DNA of 64,000 nt from Octopus vulgaris (Eukaryota): NCBI GenBank assembly GCA_951406725.2, contig OX597821.1, positions 89,280,001-89,344,000 on the forward strand, written 5' to 3'. The notes under the pieces are model-generated. The model was given only the letters and a program-made list of their open reading frames with translations, was not told the DNA's origin and did no database searches. Both the position numbers and the translations under genes were made by a program. Each line of letters opens with the position of its first letter. The stretch's first letter is position 1. Shown here in pieces: positions 12,201 through 63,840 of the stretch.

Positions 12201-12395
12201 GAAGGTATCCTTAACCTCTTGAAGTCATATGACAAGTATGTGTTAAACAGATACAATTTTGTAATAGGCATACAGACATACATATAATAGTAATAATAAT
12301 AATATAATGTACATATGTATGTGTGTATGTATATATGTGTGTTTGTGTGTGTATATATATATATATATATATGAGTGTGTGTATGAATATATGGA

Positions 12396-12650
12396 TACAG
12401 GACGTCACCAACTGTGCAAACTGCAGGAAATATGTAGATAAAACAAGTTAAATATGTAAAGAACGAGAGGAAAATATGGAAAACAGGACAAGTTAAAACA
12501 CAGAGAAACGACCCTTCATCAGTTGTCGGCTGTCTATCTACTCCTCATTTCGAGCATTCAACGACAATATGAGTCTTCAAAAACAGTTTCTCCCATAAAT
12601 TCTAAAATAAAATTTAGGATTTATGGAGGGTCAAAGTTGGAAACAAAAAC
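12396..12650 (-). mobile_element. Non-coding Penelope-like (pLTR-type) element carrying the permuted HHR
   Basis: On the plus strand it starts with TACAGGAC next to a TA/TG microsatellite, then an A-rich tract, the HHR motif and a hairpin at 12593-12626. Same layout as 55363-55700. The Penelope assignment is inferred. Confidence 0.5.
12511..12573 (-). ncRNA. Candidate non-circularly permuted (pseudoknotted) hammerhead ribozyme, copy 1
   Basis: Minus strand: CTCA-TA^TTGTCG-ttgaat-GCTC-GAAA-TGAG-15nt-CGACAA-CTGATGA-A-GGGT. Helix III CTCAT/ATGAG, helix I TTGTCG/CGACAA, helix II GCTC/GGGT. Core boxes intact; predicted cut after AUA (between 12568 and 12567). Confidence 0.72.
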
Positions 12651-12664
12651 AGGACAGTGGAGAG

Positions 12665-12950
12665 ACACACTCACCAGTAAAACTTCCACCCATTTCCCCC
12701 TTATTTTTCCAAAATTCCTACTGCGTCCTGCAACCCTTTCAATAGTTTGGAGAGTCAAAACTATTGAAAAGGTTACAAGACGGAACAAAGATTTTAGAAA
12801 AATAAAAAAGAAATAAACGGAAACTCCACCGGTGAGCATGTTAAACACAAGGCACCAAAAGAGAATGACTCTCCCTAGACACAACAGTATATGCTTCAAC
12901 AGACAAACTCACATAAAGAATTTTGCAAACCAAATCCAAAAACGAAATAT
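12665..12950. mobile_element. Repeat with an internal inverted repeat (arms about 85 bp, centre about 12752); homologous to 1639-1775
   Basis: CCTTTCAATAGTTT...AAACTATTGAAAAGG palindrome extending to CTCACCAGT/ACCGGTGAG; 12810-12950 matches the reverse complement of 1636-1775. Confidence 0.6.
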
Positions 12951-14029: not shown

Positions 14030-14905
14030 TTCCAGGAGCCATTATATTAAACATTTGCAAAGAGTAACCATGCCTTGCACAAAAAATTCAGCAGAACTGT
14101 CAGATTTTCAAAGAGGTCGTATTGTTGGGCAATCTGAGGCTGGTCTTTGCCAGCAAAAAATTGCCGAAAATCTTCAAATTCCTGTAAATAGAATTATAGT
14201 GCAATTCAAATTCTCGTCCTGGCTGACCTGGGCCCTTGGAAAGGAAGCTTCGCTGTTTGAAAAGAATTGTGAAAAACGAACCCCGTTCAAAGGCTTCTGA
14301 TATCACAAAACAGCTAGAAGTTAGTCCAAGAATGTGTGTTACATATCTGCATTAGCATATTATGGAAGAGCCACTAGAAGAAAAGAAAGAAATGAGGAGA
14401 TACCAGAAAAATCCAGTTCATTTTAGGATAGAGTGATTTTCTCAGATGAACCCAGATTTGCATTATTTTCAGACAGTAGATGTGTTGGGTCTTCCCAATC
14501 AAGAATTTAATTTGAAACAACTCCAACCAACTGTGAAACATGGCGATATCTCTGTATTGGTATGGGGAGCTGTCACCAGCAGTGGTCGTTCTGAGCTAAT
14601 TGAATGCGTTGGAACCATAAACTCTGAAAAATACATCAAAATACCTAAGCAAGGACTACTTCCGATGTATTCACATAATAACATAATAACATAATAACAA
14701 GTTTTTATTCATAGAAGATGGGGCTCCATGCCATACAGCGAAGAGGAATCAACAACGGTTGACTGAAAATGGGATGTAAAAGCTTATTTGGCCAAGCAAA
14801 TCTGGAGAAAAATTCGACAGAAACCTGAAGGTGAATACTTTTGATTATTGCATAAAAAGTGGGAAAAAATTCCATAAAGCTCATCAGTTCAATGCCAAAA
14901 GGATA
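14030..14905 (+). pseudogene. Tc1-family transposase relic
   Basis: [48 protein letters not shown] and WPS; multiple frameshifts. Confidence 0.88.
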
Positions 14906-14938: not shown

Positions 14939-15369
14939 CCTGCCCCTCTGGCATGTCATGTCATGTAATGTTATAGTTGTCCCCGCCCCTCTGGCTAATC
15001 TGTTTGGCCAGAGGGGCGGGGCCAACCATAACATTACATGACATGTCAGATTCGCCAGAGGGGCAGGGCAAACCATAACATTACATGACATGTCAGATTA
15101 GCCAGAGGGGCAGGGTCAACCATAACATTACATGACATGTCAGATTAGCCAGAGGGGCAGGGCAAACCATAACATTATATGACATGTCAGATTAGCCAGA
15201 GGGGCAAGGCAAACGATAACATTACATGACGTTAGATTAGCCAGAGGGGCAAGGCAAACGATAACATTACATGACATGTCAGATTAGCCAGAGGGGCAAG
15301 GCTACCATAACATTACATGAAATGTCAGATTAGCCAGAGGGGCAGTGTCAACCATAACATTACATGACT
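14939..15369. repeat. 47-bp minisatellite (about 8 units) with an inverted leading unit
   Basis: Unit CCATAACATTACATGACATGTCAGATTAGCCAGAGGGGCAGGGCAAA starts at 15026, 15073, 15120, 15167, 15214, 15259, 15305 and 15352; 14939-14997 is the reverse complement. Confidence 0.92.
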
Positions 15370-53640: not shown

Positions 53641-54203
53641 AGGCGGCGAGCTGGCAGAAACGTTAGCACACCGGGCGCAATGCTTAGCGGTATTTCGTCT
53701 GCCGCTACGTTCTGAGTTCACATTCCGCCGAGGTCGACTTTGCCTTTCATCCTTTCGGGGTCGATTAAATAACTACCAGTTACGCACTGCGGTCGATGTA
53801 ATCGACCTAATCCGTTTGTCTGACCTTGTTTGTCCCCTCTGTGTGTAGCCCTTGTAGGCTGTAAAGAAATGGGTATTTCGTCTGCTGCTACGTTCTAAGT
53901 TCAAATTCCGCCGAGGTCGACTTTGCCTTTCATCCTTTCAGGGTCGATTAAATAAGTACCAGTTGCGCACTGGGTCGATGTAATCGACTTAATCCGTTTG
54001 TCTGTCCTTGTTTGTCCCCTCTGTGTGTAGCCCCTTGTTTGCTGTAAAGAAATAGGTATTTCGTCTGCCGCTACACTCTGAGTTCAAATCCGCCAAAGTT
54101 GACTTTGCCTGCCATCCTTCCGGGGTTGTTAAATTAAGTACCATTTGCGTGCTGGAGTCGAACTAATCGACTGGGCTTTGCCCCAAAAATTTCGGGCCTT
54201 GTG
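53641..54203 (+). mobile_element. SINE family B tandem trimer (one head plus 183-bp units)
   Basis: GGTATTTCGTCTG recurs at 53689, 53872 and 54055; the last unit carries the alternative tail. Confidence 0.9.
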
Positions 54204-55229
54204 CTGTGTATAGAGAGGTGCCATAGCTGAAAGAACCGCTCGTGGTTGGTATTCCAAGTTCAAAAATGTATATTTTGACCTCAAAGACGCACCTTGTTCT
54301 GGCCATCCGTTGAGTTCGATGAAGAGCTATTAAATCAACTTTTGCACGAAAATTCTCGTCAAACGACAAGGGAAGTGGCAGAGATAAATGGAATGCTCCT
54401 ACACTACTTTAGAGAAGCATCTTCAATCGATGGGAAAGGTTCAGAGGTATGGAGAAAGGGTTCCGCATGCTTTAAGTAACAACAATAAAAATCAACGAGC
54501 CACATTCTTCGCTGGTTTGCTTGCTCGTCACTGCTCAACTCATGGACACAAGCAACGATTTCTTTACCGAATAGTTACTGGCGACGAAAAATAGTGCCTG
54601 TACAGGAATATGAAGCAGCGTAAGGAATGGCTTAGCCTTGGTAAACAAGCGACACCGCACGTGAAACAAGATCTTCATCCGCGTAAAACGATGTTGTGCA
54701 TATGGTAGGACTGGGAAGGGATTATCCATTACGAATTGCTTGAACGGAACCAAACGGTCAACCCGGAACTCTATGTTCAACAGATGGAACGACTCAACAC
54801 GGCTATTCAAGAGAAAAGACCTAATCGGCAGCATGGAGTTCTTCTGCTGCATGACAACGCCCGCCCTCAAATCGCCAATATGACCAAGGAAGCCATTCAA
54901 ACGCATGGCTGGGAAGTGCTGCCACACCCGTCATTCTCTCCTGATTTGGCACCAACAGATTTCCACTTCTTTCGATCTCTTTCAAATGACATGCGCGGAG
55001 TTTCGTTCAATACTGATGCAGAATTGAGAGGTTGTTTGGATCAATTTTTCGAGTCGAAATCGGGTGATTTCTATCAACGAGGTATTGAAAATCTTGTTGA
55101 ACGTTGGGAAGAAGTTGTAAACAACAAGGGTGAATACATTATTAACTAATTAGTTGTTATTTTTTTTATTAAAACCTTTTTAAAATTTTACATTTAGAAA
55201 AAACGGCGGGAATTTAGTTGGCAATCTAA
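54204..55229 (+). pseudogene. Mariner (DD34D) transposase pseudogene, 5-prime truncated, 3-prime TIR present
   Basis: RVPHAL, IVTGDEK, HDNARP and HPSFSPDLAPTDFHFF; in-frame stops and frameshifts; TIR ..GGGAATTTAGTTGGCAATCTAA|TA. Confidence 0.93.
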
Positions 55230-55273: not shown

Positions 55274-55362
55274 ATAAATAAAATATATGCATGTATACAT
55301 ACATATATGTACATACTTACATCTACATGTATATATACATGCATATATATATATATATATGA

Positions 55363-55700
55363 GTACAGGACACCACAAATAAACGTAGAACACAACGAGA
55401 GACGAAAACATAAAATCAAACAAGGAAACGGACTTTTTTTAAACAAAGAAAAAACAGAGTACAGGACAAACAATACAAGGAAAATTCCCCTTCATCAGCT
55501 GCCCCTGGTTCGACTCAAAGTGTGTTTCGAAGGTAAGGACAGAACACGGCCGAAGTAGTCCTTCCTGCAAAAGGAATTCTTTTGCAGAGGGGTAAAACAA
55601 GTGACAAAAAAAGGACGTAAAAGCAATACAAATGAAGAAAAACAGTACAAATAAAGAAACAGGACAGGGAACAGACAATAAGGGCTTATATGACCGAACG
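55363..55700 (-). mobile_element. Non-coding Penelope-like (pLTR-type) element carrying the permuted HHR
   Basis: On the plus strand: (TA)n then GAGTACAGGAC, an A-rich tract, the HHR motif and hairpin CTGCAAAAG/CTTTTGCAG at 55565-55587. Far boundary uncertain, possibly about 55950. Confidence 0.5.
55487..55547 (-). ncRNA. Candidate non-circularly permuted hammerhead ribozyme, copy 2
   Basis: Minus strand: GTG-TT^CTGTCCTT-ac-CTTC-GAAA-CAC-15nt-AGGGGCAG-CTGATGA-A-GGGG. Helix III GTGT/ACAC, 8-bp helix I (two G-U pairs), helix II CTTC/GGGG. Spacing matches copy 1 while the stem sequences differ; predicted cut after GUU (between 55543 and 55542). Confidence 0.72.
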
Positions 55701-63380: not shown

Positions 63381-63840
63381 ATCATCATCATCATCATCAT
63401 CATCGTTTAACATCCACTTTCCATGCTGGCATGGGTTGGACGGTTCAACTGGGGTCTGGGAAGCCCGAAGGCTGCACCAGGCCAGTCAGATCTGGCAATG
63501 TTTCTACAGCTGGATACCCTTCCTAATGCCAACCACTCCGTGAGTGTAGTGGGTGCTTTTTATGTGCCATCGACACAGGTGCCAGACGAGGCTGGCGAAC
63601 GGCCATGCTCAGATGGTGCTTTTTATGTGCCACCGGCACAGAGGCCAGGCGCGGCTGGCGAATGGCCATGCTCAGATGGTGATTTTTACGTGCCACCGGC
63701 ACGGAGGCCAGGCGAGGCTGGCAACGGCCATGATCGGATGGTGTTTGTTACGTGCCACCAGCACGGCGGCCAGTCGATGCGGTGCTGGCTACGGCCACGT
63801 TCGGATGGTTCTTTATTTTATGTGCCACCGGCACTGGTAC
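63381..63840 (-). mobile_element. Family E with an internal tandem array of about 63 bp
   Basis: GGTGCTTTTTA(C/T)GTGCCA-like starts at 63552, 63615, 63678, 63740 and 63807. Confidence 0.85.

Follow-up and report, generated by a model that had tools for sequence, protein, structure and literature searches.

A type SGC hammerhead motif with a probable upstream stem II strand in high-copy mobile repeats of Octopus vulgaris

In type SGC hammerheads, the three blocks of the core follow one another in the order S-G-C, and examples validated in vitro cleave at 0.007–0.19 per min (Eckert et al. 2023, PMC10085705). The accessible text of that paper gives metatranscriptomes and virus-like circular RNAs as their sources, reports no hits in the genomes of known organisms save one GCS candidate, and describes SGC descriptors that require CUGAUGAG or CUGAUGAUG; octopus and mollusc are absent from the accessible part of its supplement. 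Until now, non-circular permutations had come to light solely in virus-like RNAs from the environment, for which neither a host nor a biological context nor a model of origin was at hand, and a literature search whose scope left out most subscription journals, Repbase and bioRxiv supplements found no non-circularly permuted hammerhead from a eukaryotic genome.

The animal elements most relevant here, as far as the accessible texts describe them, carry type I hammerheads. Those in the pLTRs of PLEs are minimal, with a strong stem II hairpin, a vestigial, dimer-requiring stem III, an invariant G10.1–C11.1 pair and, as a stated hallmark, an unpaired nucleotide that falls after position 9 and before 10.1 (PMC4209133). 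PLEs themselves form many consensus families per genome and show 5′ truncation, partial tandems, an inverted 5′ copy, a short tail and a bias towards microsatellites (PMC4209133; Craig et al. 2021). Animal non-LTR retrozymes are non-coding hammerhead units, mostly of 150–450 nt and of low GC content, which occur in partial tandems together with PLEs and yield circles with extensive self-pairing (PMC7229834; Li et al. 2026, 10.64898/2026.07.22.740005). In the accessible part of the latter work, eight of nine predicted Xenopus retrozymes were uncleaved in vitro and one cleaved.

Here, we analyse a stretch of 64,000 nucleotides of the Octopus vulgaris genome (contig OX597821.1, positions 89,280,001 to 89,344,000), which we call the window. 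An initial annotation had proposed, on the minus strand, a hammerhead core in the non-circular order UH, GAAA, CUGAUGA, in which all three helices can form. The core is indeed matched exactly in this order, at 12573–12511 (Table 1). Stem III comprises 4 bp plus A15.1–U16.1, stem I 6 bp and stem II 4 bp, two of them G–U pairs, and all three stems mutually cross. Stems I and III stand as proposed, but stem II as drawn, between the strands that we denote c and f, is weak (about −2 kcal/mol in the window copy), and its 3′ strand has a better partner upstream. The expectation that nested folding would miss the motif was borne out (z = +0.77), as was the suspicion that the permuted order was already known, since it is that of type SGC (accessible text of PMC10085705). 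The cleavage triplet AUA is described as natural but slower (accessible text of PMC1636495). When the window was dinucleotide-shuffled 30 times, a descriptor for the SGC order gave no match; another 150 shuffles (64 kb, both strands) yielded one at a looser cut-off and none equalling the observed match. An Rfam scan of the window gave 257 matches, and no hammerhead family was among the 150 listed. The Rfam matches among those 150 were microsatellite-driven miRNA matches only, which we rejected. Judged from sequence, the hammerhead fold is real and selected, in a known but rare order. What is new is the biological setting of the SGC order; the topology itself is already known.

Table 1 Features of the window. 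Positions count from the first letter of the window; pairings, cut sites and helix assignments are predictions.
Feature	Positions	Strand	Remarks
Microsatellite, (TA)/(CA)	12314..12381	.	At the 3′ end of the family A copy; likely insertion target
Family A copy	12382..12669	-	5′-truncated, 3′ end fixed; BLAST alignments with other copies stop at 12669 and ~12382
Hairpin upstream of the ribozyme	12590..12628	-	In families A, B, C and E; MFE −10.7 to −12.5 kcal/mol in four consensuses
Stem-II* clamp strand	12588..12592	-	Complementary to 12556-12552; window copy has one mismatch versus the family consensus
P4, 5′ strand	12581..12586	-	Pairs with 12535-12530
Block S	12562..12573	-	Stem III strand, UA cleavage site (triplet AUA), stem I strand
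CUCA, stem III strand	12573-12570	-	
U16.1	12569	-	
A17	12568	-	Predicted cut 12568/12567
UUGUCG, stem I strand	12567-12562	-	
Block G	12544..12556	-	Stem II strand c, GAAA, stem III strand
GCUC, stem II strand c	12555-12552	-	
GAAA	12551-12548	-	
UGAG, stem III strand	12547-12544	-	
P4, 3′ strand	12530..12535	-	One nucleotide before the stem I strand
Block C	12511..12528	-	Stem I strand, CUGAUGA, extra A, stem II strand f
CGACAA, stem I strand	12528-12523	-	
CUGAUGA	12522-12516	-	
Extra A	12515	-	Directly after CUGAUGA
GGGU, weak stem II strand f	12514-12511	-	
Family B copy with inverted 5′-side partner piece to ~55985	55357..55690	-	Upper boundary approximate
Second SGC-order hammerhead with upstream clamp strand	55487..55564	-	Different stems; triplet GUU; predicted cut 55543/55542

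The annotation had also linked the motif to a retroelement, and the motif lies within a high-copy, 5′-truncated, tandem and inverted, TA-targeted repeat that we denote family A. Its unit is non-coding, pyrimidine-rich and roughly 670 nt long (the length being taken from 16 near-full units). A 161-nt query returned 2793 first-look candidates in the 2.8-Gb genome, and the 40 that were scored are all 93–100% identical; first-look numbers, here and for the families below, are not copy numbers, and the candidate sets of different families may overlap. On the ribozyme strand, copies have a fixed 3′ end and scattered 5′ ends, and TA/CA repeats follow within 30 nt of 20 of 29 3′ ends. Head-to-head inverted copies occur at 10 of 82 loci, and a unit end followed by a unit start at 17 of 82; the tandems are short, about 1–2 units, with a hammerhead in each non-coding unit. 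The repeat thus combines the traits of a non-autonomous PLE, namely 5′ truncation, partial tandems, an inverted 5′ copy, a tail and microsatellite targets, and the accessible text of Craig et al. (2021) gives the same insertion architecture for PLEs. Variation within family A resembles neutral CpG decay, and we found no covariation within this family alone. The copy in the window, its core still intact, is an old passenger. About 40 nt into the family A unit (for example, at L072:1535-1545) lies a perfect splice-donor-like site that recalls the Penelope 5′ UTR intron.

The annotation had named covariation among homologues as a check, and four homologous families beyond A (B, C, E and F) supply compensatory changes, strong in stems I and III and weak in stem II. 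A descriptor scan of all six block orders revealed the second SGC motif of the window, at about 55550, which belongs to family B (3069 candidates; flanks 68–70% identical to family A). Families C (3248 candidates), E (1146 candidates; copies 96–100% alike) and F were discovered by patterns without any pairing constraint, the scans giving 313 matches versus 4 in the reversed control and 468 versus 13. Two mis-oriented loci (L331 and L344) were left out of the family C consensus, and the family F consensus uses 10 of 16 fetched copies, L377-379 and L382-384 being truncated, variant or unresolved. The last three (L382-L384) may represent an additional GAAA...CUGAUGAAG family with another stem I strand, although these copies are degraded. 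The contiguous 200 kb beside the window held no further SGC match. A metagenome pattern scan gave at least 118 loci, with no hammerhead stems among the matches listed. A single long SGC-order match on the minus strand of L051 (~1644-1735, counted along that strand), antisense to a Neptune GIY-YIG ORF, is probably due to chance.

Between families A and B, all 14 pairs are kept although 15 of 28 stem letters differ, with 7 pairs changed on both sides; such retention was reached by 42 of 1,000,000 random simulations. Across the consensuses of A, B, C, E and F, 64 of 65 core stem cells are paired and 7 of 13 pairs have changed on both sides, as against 23–37 of 65 paired cells in slid registers. 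Because automatic alignment shifts family A by two columns at block S, pairs were counted by scripts with explicit registers; these registers were set by hand with the structure in mind, and the counts are not equivalent to an R-scape result. The two-sided changes divide the families in several different ways and therefore reflect several events, but the families are kin (59–75% identity among A, B, C and E), so the changes are not independent events. CUGANGA, GAAA and NUH are in register with stems I–III in all five consensuses. While the stems diverged, CUGAUGA, GAAA, A15.1–U16.1 and an NUH triplet (AUA, GUU, GUC, GUC and AUA) stayed constant, and H17 is never G. Core and stems are intact in 19 of 30 copies of family A, 19 of 30 of B and 15 of 20 of E, and in 1 of 20 of family C, which is CpG-rich and whose copies were chosen with a damaged query. 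RNA of this hammerhead lineage would very probably cleave itself.

The better partner of strand c was first indicated by RNAalifold. It is a strand of 5 nt, located some 20 nt upstream of the cut site, which we denote the clamp, and it pairs perfectly with c in all five families: 25 of 25 cells are Watson–Crick in the five consensuses, compared with 8–11 in slid registers. Three of its five pairs changed on both sides, probably on one branch (A/F versus B/C/E), and the helix is predicted at −4.6 to −5.4 kcal/mol, versus −2.0 to −2.9 kcal/mol for c:f. One nucleotide after the clamp, the same strand pairs with the bases directly 5′ of stem I, forming a helix that we denote P4. This helix has 6–11 bp and lies 0–1 nt from stem I; over its first six positions, 29 of 30 cells are paired in the five families, and four of the six positions show two-sided change. 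An upstream partner bridging stems I and II is seen in all five families. A downstream partner for this bridging is plausible in A and E (−9.4 and −8.8) and weak in B and C. Further upstream, the stem sequences of the hairpin listed in Table 1 differ among families A, B, C and E. Another hairpin, 3′ of the ribozyme, can trap block C; its stability exceeds that of shuffles in B (z = −2.85) and E (−2.37), whereas C is a borderline case (−1.59) and A shows no such excess (−0.69). The nested MFE folds of families B, C and E favour hairpins that trap block C.

Like type SGC hammerheads and HRIMA-1, the octopus motifs combine the S-G-C order, an exact core and three mutually crossing stems with a short linker between stems I and II, one additional nucleotide following A9 and a fourth helix next to stem I. 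Family E even has the same spacing as SGC-2 (stem I of 5 bp, linker of 3 nt, stem II* of 5 bp; SGC-2 as read from its oligos). The extra nucleotide is A here and, according to the oligos, U in SGC-1 and SGC-2; all five families read CUGAUGAAG (CUGAUGA-A-G), which neither published SGC descriptor matched. As CUGAUGAAG falls outside the CUGAUGAG and CUGAUGAUG descriptors, this would explain why these families were overlooked. The known examples are metatranscriptomic, whereas these are chromosomal, in high-copy animal repeats. They differ further in that stem II and the bridging strand are completed from the 5′ side of the ribozyme, instead of 3′ of CUGAUGA. Because clamp and P4 do both jobs of the strand that follows CUGAUGA in HRIMA-1, with the same spacing in family E, the junction resembles that of HRIMA-1 with one strand moved 5′. 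The upstream strand probably supplies or clamps stem II, and this strand arrangement is probably new.

PLE hammerheads share with these motifs the unpaired nucleotide between 9 and 10.1 and the invariant G10.1–C11.1 pair, and PLEs share the insertion traits set out above as well as the multiplicity of families within one genome. Here, however, we see a non-circular order, with strong stems I and III and without an attached ORF. The likeness to non-LTR retrozymes lies in non-coding hammerhead units, partial tandems, low GC content and co-occurrence with PLEs. In contrast to retrozymes, the octopus units span 670–900 nt, are pyrimidine-rich and mostly dispersed, with 5′ truncation and inverted ends, and the hammerhead is not of type I, its block order being SGC. 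By analogy, the motif is one that would work like a type SGC ribozyme in a retrozyme-like PLE passenger.

We somewhat favour, as the best explanation overall, an SGC-order hammerhead with an upstream clamp, in a clan of non-autonomous, Penelope-mobilized, retrozyme-like repeats. In the predicted structure, the clamp pairs with strand c and, after one nucleotide, the same strand pairs with the bases 5′ of stem I. The three-way junction would thereby be closed and stems I and II held side by side, the role of the I–II helix of HRIMA-1, and the G after CUGAUGA-A may still form the core-proximal G10.1–C11.1 pair by branch migration. On the models of PLE and retrozyme biology (PMC4209133, PMC7229834 and Li et al. 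2026, in their accessible parts), read-through transcripts of tandem copies would cut themselves during transcription into unit-length RNAs, which would be re-ligated into circles. A Penelope RT/GIY-YIG enzyme would then copy the circles into TA microsatellites, giving more-than-unit, 5′-truncated and inverted insertions, and the downstream hairpin that traps CUGAUGA may switch off the finished RNA. In family B, this hairpin resembles a decayed type I hammerhead. Such a type I-like remnant downstream suggests, as a hypothesis, that the permuted order arose when tandem type I copies collapsed, S, G and C being drawn from successive units.

On a bolder reading, the motif would represent a seventh natural topology: the backbone would be broken between A9 and G10.1, the 5′ end would supply both the stem II strand and the strand bridging stems I and II (order f, S, G, C′), and the RNA would cleave as a monomer; we regard this as possible but doubtful. 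Our literature search found no paper on a backbone break between A9 and G10.1, and the accessible part of Forgia et al. (2023) yielded nothing on insertions at A9. Were this topology real, the three blocks could no longer be assumed indivisible, as the six published permutations presuppose. Thousands of PLE-type insertions in animals would then be driven by pseudoknotted hammerheads that all standard descriptors miss, perhaps also in PLE clades that reportedly have no hammerhead (Naiad).

The same strands could be read differently, as a plain type SGC hammerhead that uses the weak c:f helix as its stem II; the upstream strand would then sequester c as an OFF switch, limiting or timing cleavage. 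Strands c and f are paired in 19 of 20 cells with G10.1–C11.1 invariant, II.4 changes on both sides (A/F versus B/E), and family F improves II.2 to A–U. A very short stem II is tolerated, natural ones often having 2 bp and engineered single-pair versions being active (accessible texts of PMC3088659 and PMC544870, respectively). We nevertheless judge this reading unlikely: the clamp would be transcribed first, P4 tethers it, and its advantage is about 2–3 kcal/mol, leaving c:f few chances to form. In addition, the letters of f are also explained by the downstream hairpin, and the geometry of the clamp mirrors the activating junction of HRIMA-1.

The RNA and the insertion ends bear on another alternative, that the structure is under selection but has lost cleavage, for example, as a hammerhead relic that serves as a recognition element for a PLE protein. 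Two raw RNA runs contained 788 and 665 reads, about equally from both strands, with no informative joints for circles, and their read ends showed no position where many molecules begin or end. Old copies transcribed passively would leave this pattern, and libraries of this kind are ill suited to a test of cleavage. Among 30 family A copies, 24 run upstream through the cut site and 3 have 5′ ends within 10 nt of it, and no pile-up of 5′ ends was found there; this would suit a re-ligated or circular template and an uncut one alike. Because these read-through copies, like the more-than-unit copies present in family E, need a circular or uncut template, they are no proof of cleavage. Missing end signals, copies that mostly span the cut site, a weak stem II and strong competing hairpins would all suit a relic. 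A relic is, however, rather improbable, given that CUGAUGA, GAAA, A15.1–U16.1 and the triplet rule, with H17 never G, persisted in five consensuses whose stems diverged. As separate observations that we do not count as evidence, an inverted junction at the site (L088:1966) is covered by 35 and 42 reads in two RNA runs of one study, and at L098 an upstream partial copy sits at the cut site.

The active form could also be a dimer or multimer in which tandem or circular units swap strands, in parallel with minimal PLE hammerheads, those of metazoans being thought dimeric (accessible text of PMC4209133); tandem copies are present, and the stem III strand of family C is self-complementary. We hold this to be quite improbable, as stems I and III are sufficiently long for a monomer, single-unit type SGC constructs cleave in vitro (accessible text of PMC10085705) and 670–900 nt lie between units. 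A chance arrangement amplified by the repeat has a negligible probability: copy number alone is no proof and family A alone lacks covariation, but the shuffles yielded nothing as good, families C, E and F are paired although found without a pairing constraint, and the cross-family covariation largely refutes it.

For the favoured explanation, a clamped SGC-order hammerhead in Penelope-mobilized repeats, the genome offers many apparently intact Neptune-type PLE ORFs (781-aa open frames). None of 30 GIY-YIG loci examined, all Neptune-type, ends in a family A unit, and the only adjacent Neptune ORF is separated from the unit by (TA)n. A tblastn search with the Neptune protein against the collected loci gave co-insertions only; among Neptune-type elements, we found no autonomous element bearing the SGC motif. 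The 3′ ends of Neptune elements (L035, L038, L039, L053 and others) carry a type I-like motif with UUGAUAA replacing CUGAUGA and, after it, a stem II hairpin and GAAAC; this motif may be a core-variant hammerhead of an apparently active family.

An animal chromosome is now seen to hold the SGC order, which recurs in five or more diverged mobile families that include young copies, beside type I relatives sharing the extra A. In this chromosomal setting, how the permutation arose, how it is regulated and what it does can be put directly to the test. Counts of hammerheads across genomes, like any claim that an element 'lacks a hammerhead', hinge on descriptors blind to the SGC-order form, and a compact new architecture becomes available to ribozyme structure and engineering. 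Among the type I relatives, family D is a short repeat with a canonical minimal type I hammerhead, common in the genome and with the same extra A after A9; at L299, L305, L307 and L323, it has a 5-bp stem II and a GUU triplet, often adjoining (AAT)n arrays. The flanks of L062, L063 and L017 hold a TA-inserted repeat with a minimal type I hammerhead, in which words of stem II show a likeness to the clamp and to strand c in families A and F. A classical non-LTR retrozyme array lies about 25 kb ahead of the window (L286:5100-7560), its six 480-bp units repeated in tandem and each bearing a type I hammerhead.

Elsewhere in the window, 14050-14900 and 54700-55150 contain what we take to be remnants resembling Tc1/mariner transposases, and tandem arrays occupy 15007-15368 (period 47 bp), 53689-54172 (183 bp) and 63552-63834 (63 bp).
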